From contig JAYZBQ010000004.1 in the NCBI GenBank assembly GCA_036338695.1, positions 15,713 through 79,712 on the forward strand: a stretch of DNA of 64,000 nucleotides, written 5' to 3'. Under the pieces are notes generated by a model that made no database searches, had not been told where the DNA came from, and saw nothing but the letters and a program-made list of their open reading frames with translations. The translations under genes were made by a program, and so were the position numbers. Each line of letters starts with the position of its first letter. Position 1 is the first letter of the stretch. Source of the stretch: Myxococcota bacterium. Its GTDB lineage: Bacteria; Myxococcota; UBA4151. Of the stretch, positions 4,727-20,865 are shown one piece after another.

Positions 4727-7700
4727 ATGTTGCGATGTGTACCGTTGGTTTGCCTGCTTTTGGGGTGCTCACTGCGCGAGGCGCCGGCACCAGCAACCCC
4801 TGTCTGCGGTAATGCGCTCGTTGAGCGCGGCGAGCGCTGTGATGACGGCAACACCAGCGACGACGACGGCTGCTCGAGCCGTTGCGCGCTGACCTATTGC
4901 GGCGACGGCCTCGTTCAGCCTTGGGAAGGTTGCGACGACGGGAACGCGGTGGATACGGACGGCTGCTCGAACGTCTGCCGTTCGGCTCAATGCGGTGACG
5001 GCATCGTCCAGAGCGACGAGGAGTGCGACCTCGGCGACGCCAACGGCGCCACCGCAGCCTGCTCGCCGCTCTGCCGCAACGCGGTCTGCGGGGACGGCTT
5101 TGTTCAAGAGGGTGAAGCCTGTGACGACGGAAACGCCGTCAACAACGACGCCTGCACGAACGCCTGCGCGCTGCCTCGCTGCGGTGATGGGATCGTCCAG
5201 CCATGGGAAGCCTGCGATCCCGGTGAAGGCGCTGAGGATGCTGGCGCCGGGCAGTGCGTCAATTGTCGCGCAGCGCAGTGCGGCGATGGGGTCGTTCAAG
5301 GTGATGAAGAGTGTGATGACGGGAACGCAGCGAGCGACGACGAGTGCACCGTTTTGTGCCGTCGCCCGGTCTGCGGTGACGGCTTCGTACAAGGCACTGA
5401 AGAGTGCGACGACGGCAACACCAACAATATGGACACCTGCACGAACGGCTGCACGGTCGCGGTCTGTGGTGACGGACACCGCTCGCCTTGGGAAGGCTGT
5501 GATGATGGCAACCGTGAGGGGGGCGACGGCTGCGACGCCAACTGCCGCAGCGAAGCGTGCGGTAACGGGCAGATCGACGGCGACGAAGCCTGCGATGACG
5601 GCAATGAGGTCGACACCGACGCCTGCACCAGCGCCTGCCAGATCGCTCGCTGCGGCGATAACTTTGTCTGGGAAGGGCGCGAGGAGTGTGACGACGGTAA
5701 CGAGTCTGCGACGGACGCCTGCCTCAATACGTGCGTGATCGCGCGCTGTGGCGACGGCGTCCCGCGTGAGGACATCGCCGAAGGGCAGCCGGGTCATGAG
5801 GCCTGCGACGACGGCAATGGCTTTAACGGTGACGCCTGCACAGATCGGTGCGAGCGCGCGCGTTGCGGCGACGGTCACGTCGGTCCGGGCGAGTCATGCG
5901 ATGACGGGGACAACGACGACGCCGACGCCTGCCGTAACGACTGCTCGGACGCCCGATGCGGTGATGGTCAGCGCCGCAACGACCTCGAGGCGGGTCAAGA
6001 GGGGTTCGAGGCGTGCGATGACGGCAATGAGGACGACGGCGACGCCTGCGTCGGTGCATGCCAGGTGGCGCGCTGCGGAGACAGTTTCGTTCAGCGTGGT
6101 GTCGAGGATTGCGATGACGGTAACCAGGTCCAGTCGGACGGCTGCCTCAACGACTGCACGGCGTCGCGTTGCGGCGACCAGATCGTCGGTCCCGGTGACG
6201 CGTGTGATGATGGTAACGAGCGCAACGACGACGGCTGTACCAACCGCTGCGCGTTGCCCGGTTGTGGAGACGGCTTCGTTCAAGACGGAGAAGAGTGTGA
6301 CGACGGCAACGAGGTGAACACCGACGGCTGCCTGAACAGCTGCTTGAGCGCTGCCTGCGGTGATGGCGTGTTGCGCGGCGATTTGCAGGAGGGTGAGGGC
6401 GGCTTTGAAGCGTGCGATGACGGCAACCAAGTCGACACCGACGCCTGCACCAGCGGTTGTCTGGCGGCGCGCTGCGGTGACGGTTACGTGCGCGTCGGCG
6501 TGGAGGATTGTGATGACCGGAACCCCGCTGACGACGACGCCTGCACCAACGCGTGCCGCTTTGCGACCTGCGGTGACGGCGTGCGGCGTACGGACCTACC
6601 CGAGGACAACGAGGACTATGAAGCCTGCGACGATGGCAACCGCGATGAGCGCGACGCCTGCCGCTCCAACTGCATCGCCGCCGCTTGCGGTGACGGCATC
6701 CTGCGCAACGACCTGCAGGAGGGCGTGGATGGCTATGAAGCCTGTGATGACGGCAACATCATCCCCACGGACGGCTGCACGCACTTATGCTTGGTCGCAC
6801 GCTGCGGCGATGGGGTGATCCGTCAAGGGATCGAAGCCTGCGATGACGGCAACGAGGTCAACACTGACGGCTGCTTGAACACCTGCAGCGTTGCTCGCTG
6901 CGGTGACGGGGTGCTGCGAAACGACCTCGAGCTTGGTCAGCAGGGTCACGAAGCCTGCGATGATGGGAACCTCAACCAGCGAGACGCCTGCCTGAACCAT
7001 TGTCAGGTGGCGATCTGCGGTGATGGCTACGTCCGGGGGGACGTCCCAGAGAATCACGAAGCGTACGAGGAGTGTGATGAGAACGACAACTGCGTGGACT
7101 GCCGCCGCCCAGAGCCGAATGGAGGCGGTCAGGAGGATGCAGGGGTCATGGGGCTCGACAGCGGCATCAACGGGCGACCGGATGGGTTCTCTGAAGGGCC
7201 GCCCGAGGGGGGTCTCCCCGACCTCGGCTTCCCGGACCTGCCCGAGGCGGGCAATGACGCCGGACCGAGACCGGACATTGACAACCTGATCCGAGACGCA
7301 GGTCCGCGGCCTGACCAGGGCCTGATCTTTGAGGCGGGCAATACGGACGTCTTTATCTTGATCGGCGATGCGCGCCCGCCGGGCTGGGATGGTCCTGTCG
7401 GAGTCATCGACAGCGGTCCTCAGGACGTGCAGGGGAATCAGAGCCCGGATATTCCCGGTATACCCGACGCGAACATGCCTGAGGTTAACCAGAATTTTGA
7501 CATCGGGATGCAGCAGACCACGATCTGTGATCTGTGGAACTCGGGCATATTTCAGATCTGCACCAACTGTCACGGGAACTCAGGCGGTGTTCGAGTGGAT
7601 CACACCTCGCCGCGTACGCTGCATGATAGCTTCGTTAACGTCGCTGGTAACTCAAACCTCGACCTCGTCTCGCCGCGTAACCCGCAAGGCTCTTATCTGT

Positions 7701-7846
7701 ACGCCAAAATGCTGGGTGCGCAGAACTTCTATCCCGGTGGCGGGGGCGGGCGCATGCCTCAAGGTGGACCGTATTACAGCCAAGAAGACCTTGCGCCTCT
7801 GCTGCGCTGGATTAACAGCGATAACCTCGCAGCGTGTCTGCCCTAG
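4727..7846 (+). CDS. Myxobacterial Cys-rich repeat (DUF4215-like) lipoprotein with a C-terminal CxxCH cytochrome c-like domain
   Basis: Lipobox LLGC; 23 CG(D/N)x..CD(D)GN..C...C repeats; Pro/Gly/Asp linker; CTNCH at 7559-7573 and a distal RMP motif. Confidence 0.85.
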   Translation: MLRCVPLVCLLLGCSLREAPAPATPVCGNALVERGERCDDGNTSDDDGCSSRCALTYCGDGLVQPWEGCDDGNAVDTDGCSNVCRSAQCGDGIVQSDEECDLGDANGATAACSPLCRNAVCGDGFVQEGEACDDGNAVNNDACTNACALPRCGDGIVQPWEACDPGEGAEDAGAGQCVNCRAAQCGDGVVQGDEECDDGNAASDDECTVLCRRPVCGDGFVQGTEECDDGNTNNMDTCTNGCTVAVCGDGHRSPWEGCDDGNREGGDGCDANCRSEACGNGQIDGDEACDDGNEVDTDACTSACQIARCGDNFVWEGREECDDGNESATDACLNTCVIARCGDGVPREDIAEGQPGHEACDDGNGFNGDACTDRCERARCGDGHVGPGESCDDGDNDDADACRNDCSDARCGDGQRRNDLEAGQEGFEACDDGNEDDGDACVGACQVARCGDSFVQRGVEDCDDGNQVQSDGCLNDCTASRCGDQIVGPGDACDDGNERNDDGCTNRCALPGCGDGFVQDGEECDDGNEVNTDGCLNSCLSAACGDGVLRGDLQEGEGGFEACDDGNQVDTDACTSGCLAARCGDGYVRVGVEDCDDRNPADDDACTNACRFATCGDGVRRTDLPEDNEDYEACDDGNRDERDACRSNCIAAACGDGILRNDLQEGVDGYEACDDGNIIPTDGCTHLCLVARCGDGVIRQGIEACDDGNEVNTDGCLNTCSVARCGDGVLRNDLELGQQGHEACDDGNLNQRDACLNHCQVAICGDGYVRGDVPENHEAYEECDENDNCVDCRRPEPNGGGQEDAGVMGLDSGINGRPDGFSEGPPEGGLPDLGFPDLPEAGNDAGPRPDIDNLIRDAGPRPDQGLIFEAGNTDVFILIGDARPPGWDGPVGVIDSGPQDVQGNQSPDIPGIPDANMPEVNQNFDIGMQQTTICDLWNSGIFQICTNCHGNSGGVRVDHTSPRTLHDSFVNVAGNSNLDLVSPRNPQGSYLYAKMLGAQNFYPGGGGGRMPQGGPYYSQEDLAPLLRWINSDNLAACLP
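4805..7107 (+). repeat. Coding tandem repeat array, 23 Cys-rich units of about 31-39 aa
   Basis: Counted in the translation; recurring DNA words tgcggtgacggc and tgcgacgacggcaac. Confidence 0.9.
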
Positions 7847-8036: not shown

Positions 8037-8058
8037 GATGACCGCTGCGTGTGAGCGC

Positions 8059-11000
8059 CTACGGGTCGACCACGACCGAGCTTGCGCCTGTGGAGGCTTG
8101 GTCATCGGGGTTGTAGTAGCTGTACGCTCGGCTCGGCGGGTGCTGAGCCGAGACCGGGCGTGTTGCCTGAAGACCGAAGCGAAGCTGCCGGCGCTCGCGC
8201 GGCTGCAGCGCCATGAGGTAGAACGTGATGCGGCGATCCGTGCGCTCAAAGCGCTGAACCGCGCCTGACTCGACCAAGCGGTTCAAATCATCGGCGAGCG
8301 CAACCATTCCCGGCGCCGTCGCCACGCTGACGATCACCTGGTCCATAGCGCCCTCATCAAGACGCGACGTCACCTCTGCGTCGACGCGCACGATCTCACC
8401 GACGCCTACCTGGCTGCGGTCATAGGTCACGCTCAGACCAAGCGATCCGACCTGCGCCGGCGGCCGGCTCCACGGCTCATAGCGGGTGCCGATCACCTGA
8501 TACATGAGGGTCCCTTCACCTGCGAAGCGCAGTGCGATGTCGGCTGTGTCGCTGCTCAGCGTCTGCCCGCTCAGGTCCAAGGTGTGGTGAACGTCGGCGT
8601 TCTCCTCGCTCAGGGTGATCTCGCCGACCTGCTCGTCCCCTAAAAGCACCTCCACCGTGCCGTTGGCGTTCGCCGTCGCTCCGGCCGCTGCAAGCGTCAG
8701 CGCCCGCAGGGAGTTCATCGTCGCCTGGGTGGAGTACCAGTTGCCGAAGGCGTCCTTGGTCGCGGCAAGGAAGGTCAAACCGTCCGCCGCCACCGCCGCA
8801 TGCTGACCGGCTTGCAGCATCGCTTGCACGACGAGTCCGGTCATCTCCACCTCACCAGGCGTCCCGCCGCCGCGCGCGCCTGTCCAGGAGTTGCCGGCAA
8901 AGGCCCACTTGATCTGACCGTCGGTCACCGTTTCTCCCGCCTCGACCAAGCGGTTGAGCATCACGGTCAGCAGCGGATCATCCGGTGCGGCGAGCGCAAA
9001 CAGGTTGGCGACCAGGGCTACGGCGTAGAGGTCGTCGGTCTGCTCGACGCGGGCTCGCAGGTAGCGCAGCGCCAGCTGCACCGAGCTGCCTGCTTTGCCG
9101 TCGTAGTGGAGCCCCGTAGCGATGTAGGCGGTCGAGCGCAGCACGTCCTCGCCGAGTGACTCGTTGCCAGCGTGCAAGGCGTCCCCAGCGGGCCACGAGC
9201 CGTCCGTCGCTTGCTGTTCGATCAGCCAGGCGCGGTGGCGATCCGCAACGGCCTCATCGGTGGCGATGATGCCCTCGAGGTCTGCGAACTGCCACAGCGC
9301 GATCGCGGTGAGGATGCGGTTGCCTGGGTCGTTGTTGCCCCACCAGTTGTACCCACCGGTCGGTGATTCAAAAGTCAGGATGCGCTGGTAGCCTGAGCGC
9401 AACAGGTCGATCGCTCGATTGAGCAGCTCGTCGTCGTCTTGCCCCGTGGCGAGCAGGTAGTTGTAGACCATGATGTTCGGCCAAGCCGTGGAGGTGGTCT
9501 GCTCGAAGCAGCCGCTCGGCATCTTGAGCATCGAGTCGATGCCCTCAACCGCCGACGTCGCGAGCCCTGGGTAGAGCTTCACCAAGAGCTCGTTGGCGCC
9601 CTCTACGCCCTCTGGCAGGTTCATCGAGACGTTCGCTGGAGCCGCGCCCAAGCGACCGCCTACGGTCTGGATCTCAGCGTCACCATCGGGTTGGATGCGG
9701 ACGCTGCGCCGGACGGCGTCGGCCTCCTCGCCAGCGATCGCCTGCACCTCGATCTCAACGGTCCCGACGCGCTCTGCGCGCAGGATGTAGGTGGCGCGCT
9801 TGACCTCGCGCGGCCCGAGCTCAACGCTGAGCTCCGCACCGCCGATCAGCGTCATCCCCTCGACCGGCTGGAGCGTGAGCGCCACGCGTTGAGCGTCCTC
9901 AAGGTAGTTGTAGACGATCACCGGGACATGGACTTCATCGCCGCGCGTCATGCTCACCGGGAGGTCGAGGTCGACGAAGAAGGGCTGAAAGACGATCAGG
10001 TCGCCCTCGCCGCTGCCGATGTGTCCCGTCGCCGAGTTGGCTTGCGCTGCGATCTTCCACGTCGTGATCGAGTCGGCGACGCGCAGGCCTTGCTCGGCGC
10101 GGCCGTCTTCATCGGTGATGATCATCGGCGCTGCGATGAGTGTCTCGGGGAACCAGCTGCGCACGCGCGGTGCGCCAGGCGCTGCGCCCCCGCCGCCTTC
10201 GTTCTGCTCGACGTTCGCTTCGGGTGGCTCAGGTTGACCGGGGTCAGCCTGTTCTGGCGCGCCCGCCGCCATGTCATCCGCTTCGGCAAAGCCCGTCCCG
10301 CGCTGCTGAGCGATGGCGACGCTCAGGTCGGCGGCGACCCGCAGGTCATCGACGGTGCCAAAGACCTCGTCGGCGCCACTCGAGACCAAGGTCGCCTGCC
10401 AACCGCCGACCTCGAACTGGTAGATTTTACCGAACGGGTCGGCGCGGCCAGTGAGCATGCGCTCCATGACGCCCTCGTAGTTTTCAAAGTCGACGTCGCC
10501 CGCTTCCCATTGGTTTTTGAGCTCCTCGACCAGACCGTCGAGCTCCCGCTGGAGTCGAGCGGTGAGGTGGGTCTTCGCTGCAGCCTGGTCGATCACCTCA
10601 GAGTCTTGATTGACCGTTGCGCCGGCGCCGCTCAAGCGAGCGAAGGCTGCCTCGGCGACGGTCTCATCTCGGCTCGAGAGGGCGCGATTGATGCTCACCG
10701 AGGGCGCAGGGCTCTGATCTTGCCCCGGGCGCAGCCCGAGGTCGAAGTAGCTCTCCGAGACCCCAGGTTTCGCCGGGGAGAGACCAAAGACGGATTCGTC
10801 GACCGCGGTCAAACCGACAGCGGCCTGCTGCGGGTTGCCCTCGGCGTCGCGCACCTGGATCGCCAGCCGCGCGTTCTCGCCGGGTCGGTAGCTTGGCTTC
10901 TCGGGCGTGATCGCCACGTTGATCACCTTACCGCCGTCAACGTGCACCAGGCTCAGGCCAGTGTAGAGCGCCCCCTCGGCGCTGCGTTGCAGCGCACGGA

Positions 11001-12849
11001 TCTGGACCCCGCCGTGTAGATCGGTCGGGAGGTTGAGCTGCGCGGTGGCGCGTGCGTCGCTGATCTCGACGGAGCTGGACGCAAGCACCTTGCCCTCGCG
11101 CAGCGCATCGACGATCACTCTGCCGTTGTGGCTCGAGGTGAGGTCGACGTTGAGCGCCTCGCCCGCTCGCACAAAGCGTTTCTCGGGCGCCACGAGGATC
11201 CCATCCACCAAGCCATCGATCATGACCTGAGCGCTGTGCGCCTGAGCGCCCAGCACGTCGACGCGCAGCTCGGTGGCGAGCTCCATGGCGGGCAGCTCGA
11301 TGCGCGCAACGCCTGAGGCGTTGCTGGTGGCCTCGAGCGCTCCGCCGCCTGGAAGGGTCACGCGCAGCTCCGCTTGGATGGGCTGACCACCCGGGTTGGT
11401 GACCAGGATGAGCGCAGGTTGAGCGACCTTCTTGAGCCAGCGGCCTGCGCTTGGCTGGATCAGGACGCGGCTCGGACCACCAGCCACGGGGAGCGTGCGC
11501 TGGCTCTGGAGCCGCTGCCCGGCGCTGTCCGTTGCGGTGAGGGTGAGCCGATAAGCCGCCTTGCCCTGCGCGACCAGCAGCGGGTCAAAGCGGCCGACGT
11601 CGAGCTGGAAGTCGAGCTGCCCGGCGGCGTTCGTGCGCCCCTCAAAGCGAGTGACCGTCGAGGCTGCGCCGTCGCGAACGGCGTCGCCGAGGAGCTCGAT
11701 CGTGGCGTTGGGCACGGGCTGACCAAAGGGGTAACGCAGGCTGAGTGAGCCGCTGAGCTGACCGCCGGGGCTCAGCCAGCTGCGCTCGAGCTGGAAAGTC
11801 ACCAGCATCCGAGGGAGCCGGTAGCGCTCGACGATCACCCGCTCTTCGACGGCGGTCTCACCGACCTGCGTGCGGATCAAGTAGGTGCCTTCGTTGACTC
11901 GATCGGCGAGCTTGAAGTCGATCGCCGCCACGCCATAGGCGTTGCTCGTCTCGGTGTGGCGATGCACGCGGTTCTCAGCGCCATCAAAGATCTCGAAGAC
12001 GATCGGCTGGTTGGCGCTCGGGCTGCGGTCACCCGCCTCGACGGCGAGCACGCGCAGGTGCATCGTCTGACCGGGTTGATAGCGAGGCTTATCGGTCGTG
12101 ACTTGGATGCGCTTGGTGCTCACAAAGTCGATCGGTACGCTCAAGAGCGCCTGACCCGAAGCACCGGCGCTGCTGAGGCGAAGGGTCGCTGCACCCGCCG
12201 TGAAATCGGTCAGGTCGGCTTCGAGCTCGGCGAGCCCGGAGGCGTCGCTGGTGGCTGAGCCGAGCGTTTTCAGCTCGCCCTCACCTTGTTGCAGACCAAA
12301 GTCGACCACGGCGCCTGCCACGACCTCGCCGGAGCTGGCGTCGCGCACGTAGCTGCGAAAGACCGTCGATGAGTTGACCGCAAGTTGGCGCGAGCCGATG
12401 GCGTGGAGCGCCAGGCGTGAGACTGCGCTGAACAGCGAGCGGCGCGCCCGGACGCGGTGATCACCCGCCGTCACGACCGCCTCGACGACATACTTAGCGA
12501 GGTCGCCCAGCGCGTCGACCTGGACCCCGCTGAGCTCGGCTGAGACTCCGGCGCCTGGTGTGCTCAGGGTCACGCTTGCGGTCTCTTTTGCCACCGTCAC
12601 GTCGCGCTCAGCGGCGAGGTTGATGAGCCGCATCTCGACCCTGGCGTCTTCGCTCCCCTCGCTAAGCGCCACAGGGACCGCCAGCGTGACCGTGTTGCCG
12701 CTGAGTGAGGCTGTGATCAGGTTTTCATCCAACGAGAGCGGGCCGGAGACCAGCTTGTCCGGCAGGAGCCGATCGCCGCTGCTCGGCTGGGTACAGCCGA
12801 TGGCGACGAGGGTGAGTCCGGCGAGAGCGGCGCGTGGCAGACCGAGCAT
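8059..12849 (-). CDS. Alpha-2-macroglobulin / thioester-containing lipoprotein
   Basis: MG-domain motifs TTDKPRYQPGQ and PEKPSYRPGE, RVRSWFPET, DSITTW, FQPFFVDLDLP, thioester motif GCFEQ (9499-9510), STQAT; lipobox VAIGC; SD GGAGG before ATG 12849. Confidence 0.92.
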   Translation of the reverse strand: MLGLPRAALAGLTLVAIGCTQPSSGDRLLPDKLVSGPLSLDENLITASLSGNTVTLAVPVALSEGSEDARVEMRLINLAAERDVTVAKETASVTLSTPGAGVSAELSGVQVDALGDLAKYVVEAVVTAGDHRVRARRSLFSAVSRLALHAIGSRQLAVNSSTVFRSYVRDASSGEVVAGAVVDFGLQQGEGELKTLGSATSDASGLAELEADLTDFTAGAATLRLSSAGASGQALLSVPIDFVSTKRIQVTTDKPRYQPGQTMHLRVLAVEAGDRSPSANQPIVFEIFDGAENRVHRHTETSNAYGVAAIDFKLADRVNEGTYLIRTQVGETAVEERVIVERYRLPRMLVTFQLERSWLSPGGQLSGSLSLRYPFGQPVPNATIELLGDAVRDGAASTVTRFEGRTNAAGQLDFQLDVGRFDPLLVAQGKAAYRLTLTATDSAGQRLQSQRTLPVAGGPSRVLIQPSAGRWLKKVAQPALILVTNPGGQPIQAELRVTLPGGGALEATSNASGVARIELPAMELATELRVDVLGAQAHSAQVMIDGLVDGILVAPEKRFVRAGEALNVDLTSSHNGRVIVDALREGKVLASSSVEISDARATAQLNLPTDLHGGVQIRALQRSAEGALYTGLSLVHVDGGKVINVAITPEKPSYRPGENARLAIQVRDAEGNPQQAAVGLTAVDESVFGLSPAKPGVSESYFDLGLRPGQDQSPAPSVSINRALSSRDETVAEAAFARLSGAGATVNQDSEVIDQAAAKTHLTARLQRELDGLVEELKNQWEAGDVDFENYEGVMERMLTGRADPFGKIYQFEVGGWQATLVSSGADEVFGTVDDLRVAADLSVAIAQQRGTGFAEADDMAAGAPEQADPGQPEPPEANVEQNEGGGGAAPGAPRVRSWFPETLIAAPMIITDEDGRAEQGLRVADSITTWKIAAQANSATGHIGSGEGDLIVFQPFFVDLDLPVSMTRGDEVHVPVIVYNYLEDAQRVALTLQPVEGMTLIGGAELSVELGPREVKRATYILRAERVGTVEIEVQAIAGEEADAVRRSVRIQPDGDAEIQTVGGRLGAAPANVSMNLPEGVEGANELLVKLYPGLATSAVEGIDSMLKMPSGCFEQTTSTAWPNIMVYNYLLATGQDDDELLNRAIDLLRSGYQRILTFESPTGGYNWWGNNDPGNRILTAIALWQFADLEGIIATDEAVADRHRAWLIEQQATDGSWPAGDALHAGNESLGEDVLRSTAYIATGLHYDGKAGSSVQLALRYLRARVEQTDDLYAVALVANLFALAAPDDPLLTVMLNRLVEAGETVTDGQIKWAFAGNSWTGARGGGTPGEVEMTGLVVQAMLQAGQHAAVAADGLTFLAATKDAFGNWYSTQATMNSLRALTLAAAGATANANGTVEVLLGDEQVGEITLSEENADVHHTLDLSGQTLSSDTADIALRFAGEGTLMYQVIGTRYEPWSRPPAQVGSLGLSVTYDRSQVGVGEIVRVDAEVTSRLDEGAMDQVIVSVATAPGMVALADDLNRLVESGAVQRFERTDRRITFYLMALQPRERRQLRFGLQATRPVSAQHPPSRAYSYYNPDDQASTGASSVVVDP

Positions 12850-13107
12850 AGAGAGCCTCCTTGAGCGCGTCGGGTTAGCGACCCGAGCGTAAGCAGTCGG
12901 TAGACTAGCCGAATATTGAGTTGGCGCAAACACCTGCGGTGATCCAGCGAGGCCGAGGATGCCGGGGCGAGGGCGCTGCGCACGGGACCTCCCGGACTCG
13001 ACTTGGCGCTGCGGCCATGTTTTGGCAGTAGGTGCCCACGAGGGCGGCGCCTCGCGCGGCGCTTGTGACTTATCAAGCCCTTCCTTCGGGCGGACGCAGG
13101 ACCTGTT

Positions 13108-20349: not shown

Positions 20350-20865
20350 TTATGCTTGCTCGATCAGGGCGATCAGGTCCGCCTTGCGGATGCGGTTCGG
20401 GACCGCGATCGCGCGCTCGGCTGCCAGGGCGCGTAAGGCCTTGACGGTCAGCGCTTCAAGTCCAGGCTCGGCTTCGACCTCATCCGCCACGACGGGTGCA
20501 GGCGCCGGAGCAGCTACTGGCTCATCGTTCGCCGGCGTCGACGTGACCTTGTTGCGGAGCTCAGCGACTCGGTTGGTCAGGTCGGTGACGCGTGCGCTCA
20601 GGTCACCGAGCAGACCCTCGATGTCCGACTCGAGCGCGTCGAGGCGACTCTTGACCCCGTCGAGATCGACGGCGTTCTTGAGGTTGAGCCGGTCGATGAC
20701 GACTTTGACGTTGCCTTCGACCTCATCTTTGACGGCCAAGCCGCTTTTGACGACGGTCTCGAGCTTGCCTTGCAGCGCTTTGTTCTTGGACAGCGCTTCG
20801 GCTGCTTGGCTGACGGTTTGTTCGCCCAGTTTGGTGAGGCGATTGATGACGGCTTGTGGTGCCAT
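20350..20865 (-). CDS. Phasin (PhaF/PhaI)-like coiled-coil protein with a C-terminal Rho-N/HeH-type domain
   Basis: N-terminal amphipathic region RLNL....DLDGVKSRLDALE, Ala/Pro linker, C-terminal LEALTVKALRALA..RAI....RIRKADLIALI; SD GGAGG. Confidence 0.55.
   Translation of the reverse strand: MAPQAVINRLTKLGEQTVSQAAEALSKNKALQGKLETVVKSGLAVKDEVEGNVKVVIDRLNLKNAVDLDGVKSRLDALESDIEGLLGDLSARVTDLTNRVAELRNKVTSTPANDEPVAAPAPAPVVADEVEAEPGLEALTVKALRALAAERAIAVPNRIRKADLIALIEQA

Follow-up and report, generated by a model that had tools for sequence, protein, structure and literature searches.

The window, a stretch of 64,000 nucleotides from a Myxococcota bacterium, encodes on its minus strand an alpha-macroglobulin that its sequence and structural models mark clearly as animal-type and not as a relative of the E. 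coli YfhM type. With slightly more confidence than doubt, we read this protein, by analogy with human A2ML1 and CD109, as a covalent protease trap that is tethered at the cell envelope and capable of attacking hydroxyl groups. An earlier note on this DNA had proposed a lipid-anchored, opsonin-like protein with a TEP/C3-like thioester domain that bonds to carbohydrate on prey or substrate. All of the motifs quoted there were found in the minus-strand open reading frame, while its functional proposal is weighed below.

In comparisons of the full-length protein with solved structures, the scores were 173 bits for A2ML1, 170 for A2M, 163 for CD109, 117 for TEP1, 101 for C4, 87 for C3 and 52 for E. 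coli YfhM. The three best matches, A2ML1, A2M and CD109, are protease inhibitors. For the thioester domain, phmmer gave 92 bits with A2ML1, 85 with CD109, 73 with A2M, 65 with TEP1, 47 with C4 and at most 32 with C3. The earlier description of this domain as TEP/C3-like therefore stands insofar as the domain is animal-type, but the label itself does not: given that its scores are highest with A2ML1, CD109 and A2M, "A2ML1/CD109-like" fits better. As a control, the C-terminal 923 residues of the canonical macroglobulin from the same genome scored 184 bits with Salmonella A2M, 169 with ECAM and 29 with CD109.

The predicted structures point the same way. The AlphaFold model of the thioester domain matched animal thioester domains with Z scores of 29–32, CD109, A2M and TEP1 being tied. 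A model of residues 24–1056, with a predicted local distance difference test (pLDDT) score of 88, gave Z scores of 36.5 with active CD109, 35.4 with A2ML1, 35.2 with C5b and 33.3 with C3, as compared to at most 22.5 with the bacterial structures (ECAM and Salmonella A2M). Conformation matters for this contrast, as native A2ML1 and CD109 reach only about 21, and in these models the fold alone does not separate a trap from complement.

The orthologues are bacterial. Two same-genus genomes have orthologues of 80–85% identity, and within the same family identity is 63–65%, while one further same-genus genome (59% complete) yielded the canonical macroglobulin type only. A search of genome contigs with the single protein found five loci, of which the closest named ones, at 81–85% identity, are Myxococcota records. 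The GC content at third codon positions is 0.82 in the gene, against a genome median of 0.77. The bacterial composition and the orthologues in related bacteria rule out that the gene is a contaminant or was recently acquired from an animal.

The window protein fits the layout of the alpha-macroglobulin superfamily, with a ring of macroglobulin (MG) domains, a bait and an insert in MG6, a CUB–TED unit between MG7 and MG8, and MG8 itself (Table 1). It matched the Pfam families MG2, A2M_BRD, A2M, TED_complement and A2M_recep, whereas no Pfam match to an anaphylatoxin or C345C domain was found, the chain stopping at MG8. No NCBIfam macroglobulin model matched this protein or the six other proteins scanned. 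In fold alignments, animal chains align to the window model from residue 146 onward only. A linker joins MG1–MG6a to the folded insert, and a conserved VR..FPET motif, at which the alignment to A2M picks up, directly follows the bait-like region. In MG8, Met1502 and YSYY (1576–1579) align to A2M residues that shield the thioester. The protein has two cysteines only, Cys19 in the lipobox and Cys1114 in the thioester motif. An alternative start at GTG 13257, which would give a 1732-residue open reading frame, was rejected: it overlaps the divergent ligase gene, and the ribosome-binding site, the lipobox and the lengths of the homologues favor ATG 12849.

Table 1. Coordinates of the macroglobulin gene, its parts and related features (window positions unless a locus or contig handle is given)
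Feature	Position	Strand	Remarks
Animal-type alpha-macroglobulin gene	8059..12849	(-)	1596 aa; intact, without frameshift or intron
Ribosome-binding site AGGAGG	12856..12861	(-)	six bases upstream of ATG 12849
Signal peptide, lipobox-like LVAIG-C19	12793..12849	(-)	predicted lipoprotein; +2 residue Thr
Extra N-terminal beta-sandwich domain (one), ~residues 30–144	12418..12762	(-)	before MG1; AlphaFold (AF2) model, high pLDDT
MG1–MG6a macroglobulin ring, ~residues 146–690	10780..12414	(-)	Pfam MG2 + A2M_BRD; fold match
Folded insert, residues 745–847	10309..10617	(-)	directly before bait; ends in pseudopilin-GspG-like DPFG...SSGADEVFGTVDD motif
Bait-like region, residues 848–889	10183..10308	(-)	disordered, pLDDT <50; Gly/Ala/Pro/acidic; hypervariable
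MG6b + MG7, ~residues 896–1054	9688..10164	(-)	Pfam A2M PF00207
Thioester domain, residues 1100–1385	8695..9552	(-)	Pfam TED_complement, E 3e-37; model pLDDT 90
Thioester motif GCFEQ, Cys1114 + Gln1117	9499..9513	(-)	Cys codon 9510-9508, TGC
His1226, specificity-site histidine	9172..9174	(-)	
MG8 / receptor-binding-type domain	8062..8457	(-)	Pfam A2M_recep; end of chain
Lipoprotein-like protein with 19 myxobacterial cysteine-rich repeats	4727-7846	(+)	1039 aa; convergent on the macroglobulin gene
Canonical YfhM-type macroglobulin, GCMEQ	C60:13967-20173	(-)	open reading frame of 2068 aa; same genome
PBP1c gene	C95:10682-12868		same genome; different contig from canonical macroglobulin
Lipoprotein genes (~365 aa) near relatives	L028:4154-5254, L037:1576-2670, L051:4656-5744, L053:10674-11765, L054:10415-11524		
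TGA-bearing loci of relatives	L055:3897 and 10579; L069, L071, L073, L075-L078, L093-L103		
TGA-bearing genomes	G076, G086, G311, G316, G358, G374, G379, G390, G409, G417, G434		

The N-terminus supports the earlier suggestion of a lipid anchor, and the motif predicts that the macroglobulin is held at the cell envelope. A simple lipobox pattern is present in 63 of the 69 full-length closest homologues, as compared to just 3 of 107 members of an Armatimonadota-type group, by the same kind of rough pattern.

The disordered stretch at residues 848–889 is likely the bait, as its composition and predicted disorder are those expected of one. Across the homologues this stretch is variable, rich in Gly, Ala, Pro and Asp and poor in Lys, and it measures 47–212 residues (median 68; 187 sequences measured). 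The motif in the preceding insert matched five GspG pseudopilin structures when searched as an 11-sequence profile (E 1.3e-4 to 6e-3), while the single-sequence Pfam T2SSG match falls below the cut-off; haemagglutinin matches in the profile search (E >0.25) were set aside as generic helix matches. The equivalent loop of GspG binds calcium. The motif pattern occurs in 189 of 305 full-length homologues and was not seen in four loci of a shorter subclade described below. The insert sits near the position of the anaphylatoxin domain of C3. At the bait position, two relatives carry other folded insertions: YscJ/FliF ring domains in P0149 (residues 1029–1317) and carboxypeptidase-regulatory-like repeats in P0164 (residues 882–1079).

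The histidine reported earlier 112 residues after the thioester cysteine was confirmed (Cys1114 to His1226). Positions and spacings were counted by hand from phmmer alignments to PDB chains. His1226 aligns with the histidines of A2ML1 (chain 7q1y His1066, which an inferred offset of +18 equates with His1084; Cys–His spacing 114), CD109 (spacing 114) and TEP1 (4lnv His951, TEP1 His972; spacing 113), and with an asparagine of A2M (7voo Asn1062, Asn1088 with an offset of +26; spacing 116). The matches to human C3 stop just short of the C3 histidine, and the equivalence to that site comes from PMC7864068, the accessible part of which equates A2ML1 His1084 with the histidine of C3 and C4B. The thioester-domain model has template modeling (TM) scores of about 0.75–0.8 to animal domains.

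In a 390-row, prokaryote-only FastTree tree, built with the His-loop columns left out and carrying long-branch warnings, the window protein falls in a clade of 101 rows (support 98). His1226 is invariant in all 101, over an identity range of about 38–100%, as are the Cys, Glu and Gln of the thioester motif; other histidines of the thioester domain are kept in 8% (His1205), 4% (His1248) and 16% (His1350) of the clade. The histidine is thus conserved in orthologues, as the earlier proposal required. Among 120 listed homologues, 92 have His in this column, and none of the 75 best lacks it. In the 382 family rows taken together, this position holds His in 152, Ala in 114, a gap in 34, Asn in 23, Arg in 21, Asp in 12 and Glu in 10, the loop aligning poorly in distant rows and the Ala count being inflated because one search centered on an Ala-type protein. 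The canonical rows form a separate branch and are gapped at this column in seven of eight cases. The family varies among His, Asn and Asp at the specificity site, as animals do.

This variation, which requires at least 20 changes between His and non-His on the tree, would suit a structural or neutral histidine in an amine-only trap like ECAM or A2M, as would the little hydroxyl reactivity that the N1088H substitution brought to A2M in the accessible part of PMC7864068. We consider such a histidine very unlikely, as His1226 is invariant throughout its clade and matches three animal His sites exactly, and the skewed sampling of Ala-type rows exaggerates the variation. According to the same source, moreover, animals vary at this site because it sets the specificity of the reaction. 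Given that the histidine stands at the specificity site and is conserved in orthologues, it is a fair prediction that the window protein reacts with hydroxyls.

From these sequence features, we infer a single-use trap, with the animal proteins serving as the model for how its thioester would form, be cleaved out and react, and for its location and target. The Cys1114–Gln1117 thioester would form and, as in A2ML1 and CD109, be shielded by MG8. A protease would cut the bait at residues 848–889, the thioester domain would swing out, and His1226 would take the acyl group as a short-lived acyl-imidazole, which would react with the nearest amine or hydroxyl, mainly on the cleaving protease. Lys-poor or glycosylated proteases would thereby also be caught, and the captured protease would remain tethered to the cell's own membrane. 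In its accessible part, PMC7864068 describes A2ML1 as a monomeric protease inhibitor that depends on His1084 for its reaction with glycerol and for conjugation of amine-free thermolysin, states that monomeric macroglobulins require covalent capture, and gives the acyl-imidazole a lifetime of <1 s. The available text of PMC9156758 agrees on the role of the A2ML1 histidine and describes the bacterial structures as quite distinct from the animal ones. CD109 appears in the accessible portion of PMC12927315 as a covalent protease inhibitor with a glycosylphosphatidylinositol (GPI) anchor, and hydroxyl reactivity is not mentioned in that portion.

Several observations weigh against a tethered trap. 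C3, C4 and C5b fit the MG ring as well as CD109 and A2ML1 do, with nearly tied Z scores of 33–36, and a Foldseek search with the ring puts C3 first. The window clade has His-Ala-Gly at the specificity site, not the His-x-Glu of 23 of the 152 His-bearing relatives, and the localization is a motif-based prediction. The behavior of A2M N1088H counts here as well. Finally, TEP1, an opsonin, has the same layout and the histidine, so that layout does not speak against tagging.

The earlier note had taken a histidine at this site to mark an opsonin and its absence a trap. That division fails, because A2ML1 and CD109 both bear the aligned histidine and both trap proteases. Its link to prey finds no support either: nothing was found that ties the protein to prey, and the family spans many phyla. 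Surface tagging nevertheless has to be considered because TEP1, a close match, shares the domain layout. A TEP1/C3-like tagger or covalent adhesin would be exposed at the surface and, once cut, would attach itself via hydroxyls to the carbohydrates of prey, particles or matrix. Besides the histidine at the C3/C4B/TEP1 site, a type II secretion secretin scoring over the cut-off in the window genome, which could expose lipoproteins, and the GspG-like motif preceding the bait would accord with such a role. So would the shorter subclade, in which the five loci of one genome family (9–13 Mb) have His nested among Asp rows on the FastTree tree; this Asp/His switch resembles that of C4A/C4B. On the other hand, the window protein has no anaphylatoxin or C345C domain, no conserved partner was seen in the window or among 50 scanned neighbors of relatives, the family occurs in many phyla without a known predatory habit, and the His-bearing A2ML1 and CD109 are traps. 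In addition, an acyl-imidazole lasting <1 s makes the protease that did the cutting, or the envelope of the cell itself, the favored target. We consider tagging of foreign surfaces unlikely.

A third possibility concerns the envelope itself. An anti-sigma zinc finger was recorded at the N-terminus of L056:5774-11514, L100, L102 and L098, and of P0149, P0234, P0342 and P0365; in such relatives the macroglobulin is possibly the outer sensor domain of an anti-sigma factor. The window protein could in the same vein be a protease-triggered sensor or patch, whose cleavage leads to cross-linking to the cell's own peptidoglycan, lipopolysaccharide or matrix, or to a damage report. The zf-HC2 finger was found in 4 of the 10 candidates scanned, the L056 member lies directly behind a gene for an extracytoplasmic function (ECF) sigma factor, and L100 and L102 have a sigma-like open reading frame upstream, judged by motif only. 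Furthermore, pspC and pspA lie upstream in L037, and pspC in L051. However, the window protein itself has no anti-sigma finger, membrane-spanning linker or sigma neighbor, and the rough finger pattern occurs in just 10 of 316 full-length homologues. We judge a sensor or patch to be distinctly improbable, and the tethered protease trap is retained as the preferred reading.

In some relatives, the thioester cysteine itself appears to be replaced. A single TGA was present in 20 matches from 11 genomes, 3 of them from the window's phylum and 17 from a Planctomycetota search, and in all 20 it falls at the thioester Cys codon (GUFEQ). The frame continues for 456–496 codons past the TGA, and the 15 ends printed resemble a normal C-terminus. 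One locus, L078, reads U-C-E-Q, with Cys directly after the TGA. All 11 genomes have selA over the cut-off, and 10 have a tRNA-Sec of at least 67 bits. Since 30 of the 36 other Planctomycetota genomes with a family member also have selA, its presence is necessary rather than discriminating. Relative to synonymous shuffles, the 60 bases after the TGA showed excess folding, with a mean z of −2.3 (n=20, kin not being independent), whereas Cys-containing genes gave −0.5 (n=50) and sequence further downstream about 0. RNAalifold found no shared consensus structure of a selenocysteine insertion sequence (SECIS) in the 20 post-TGA sequences. A rough tree requires 6 changes between Sec and Cys, and 8 of the 20 TGA-bearing members have His at the specificity site. 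These observations indicate that the TGA-bearing relatives are likely selenoproteins, and likely selenoester macroglobulins. In the window gene the site is encoded by TGC, and a search for selA in the window's genome (93.6% complete) found none.

The family as a whole is large. At 50% identity, 759 clusters were found at E ≤1e-30 and 4404 at E ≤1e-3; the best 150 were inspected, so that animal and canonical proteins may be among the wider counts. In the window's phylum, 115 of 301 genomes have a match at E ≤1e-20, among them closed single-contig genomes, as do 45 of 151 genomes of the phylum of a Planctomycetota record. In the search that found the same-genus and same-family orthologues, canonical macroglobulin copies scored far weaker. 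Named members also come from Armatimonadota, Planctomycetes, Verrucomicrobiota, WOR-3, Spirochaetes, Eremiobacterota and Methylomirabilota. A plasmid search gave no match to the window macroglobulin, and a search of the ESM Atlas returned thioester-domain clusters only. The shorter subclade is likewise closest to animal A2M and has Asp (ALD) at the histidine site, while its loci L042–L046, from the large-genome family, have His (ALH). Their place on a prokaryote-only FastTree tree with long-branch warnings suggests that this His was gained separately.

In its 3.36-Mb genome, the window gene is a solitary one, with a divergent acyl-CoA ligase gene on one side and the convergent gene for the cysteine-rich repeat protein on the other; in L024, a gene related to the latter lies two genes further on. 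Alongside the canonical YfhM-type macroglobulin and PBP1c encoded elsewhere, the window macroglobulin constitutes a second, standalone system. From 26 related loci, 50 of 94 candidate neighboring open reading frames (plus one N-terminal piece) were scanned, and the neighbors differ between loci. No member of the PBP1c/PBP family was found among these 50 or adjoining the window gene, and no convertase-like, receptor-like or LRIM1/APL1C-like partner gene was seen in the neighborhoods of the window gene and its relatives. In five loci, a co-oriented lipoprotein of about 365 residues without a Pfam match follows the macroglobulin gene.

One metatranscriptome hints that the gene is transcribed in a close strain: RNA contigs, mostly 95–99% alike, tile positions 8042–12881, while a 19.9-kb control stretch was covered patchily and unevenly (16 of 30 bins), with one gene at depth 117. 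This evidence carries little weight, as the presence of the gene was the reason for selecting the run, and three further metatranscriptome runs cover the gene only in scattered pieces. The deeply covered RNA contig, far above its surroundings, corresponds to a 171-residue gene with an Ala/Pro-rich tail at window positions 20350-20865 (minus strand).

Bacterial macroglobulins are described, in the accessible parts of PMC9156758, PMC5764988 and PMC3735191, as two types whose structures are distinct from those of the animal proteins and which are presumed to derive from animals, and the available portions of two 2026 reviews mention bacterial A2M of the known kind only. Judged by similarity scores, the present proteins form a large bacterial family with far greater likeness to the animal proteins than the known bacterial macroglobulins have. 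We found no description of this branch in the literature searched, although Budd 2004 may already include some members; the accessible parts of PMC5489563, PMC12324236 and bioRxiv 2022.08.08.503129 contain nothing on it, the last reporting macroglobulins in Patescibacteria. With a branch in free-living bacteria that stands so near the animal proteins, a tree could test which way the transfer went and where complement-type thioester chemistry arose. One scaffold occurs naturally with His, Asn or Asp and probably with selenocysteine, which offers a series for studying thioester specificity in non-glycosylated bacterial proteins. A selenoester as covalent warhead, if true, is a use of selenium that neither of two catalogues, PMC12013277 and PMC9312934, lists: no macroglobulin appears in the text and four supplements of the former or the text of the latter, although no literature search was aimed at selenium and macroglobulins together. 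A further, doubtful extension is that the family represents a third macroglobulin class in free-living bacteria, sister to or source of animal A2M, CD109, TEP and C3/C4. In such a class, the His/Asn/Asp switch of C4B, A2M and C4A would already tune the warhead, some lineages would use a selenoester, and the window member would bond covalently to hydroxyls not only of proteases but also of foreign surfaces, as a forerunner of opsonization.

As compared to known systems, the window protein fits neither of the two bacterial types, as PMC5764988 and PMC3735191 define them, nor complement C3/C4. With type I bacterial A2M (ECAM/YfhM and SaA2M; 4rtd, 4ziq, 5a42, 4u48) it has in common the predicted lipoprotein character, the bait, the CxEQ thioester motif and the proposed covalent trapping. 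However, YfhM has an adjacent pbpC and two extra N-terminal domains, whereas the window protein lacks an adjacent pbpC, has one extra domain and scores weakly against it. Type II bacterial A2M (Pseudomonas MagD and E. coli YfaS) shares the macroglobulin fold with a bait, but is encoded within an operon of six genes and has no CxEQ, according to the accessible part of PMC5764988, whereas the window gene has the motif and no such operon. Family members bear the label "YfaS" in some databases. C3, C4 and C5b give good fits to the MG-ring model, but C3 and C4 score lower in sequence and differ by their anaphylatoxin and C345C domains. Anopheles TEP1 (4lnv, 2pn5) agrees in thioester fold, aligned histidine and domain layout; these TEP1-type features, a thioester, the histidine and the lack of anaphylatoxin and C345C domains, are common to A2ML1 and CD109 and thus not diagnostic. 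Human A2ML1 (PDB 7q1y, 7q5z, 7q60-62), the best sequence match, shares the MG1–MG8/CUB/TED layout, the bait and the His site. It is soluble, glycosylated and disulfide-linked with CGEQ, whereas the window protein has CFEQ, two cysteines, a lipobox, one additional N-terminal domain and, ahead of the bait, the GspG-like insert. Human CD109 (PDB 8s3o, 9fx3), a membrane-anchored protease inhibitor with the aligned histidine, is the top fold match for both models; its anchor is a C-terminal GPI, released on cleavage, whereas the predicted anchor of the window protein is an N-terminal lipid. By analogy, the window protein would work most like A2ML1 and CD109.

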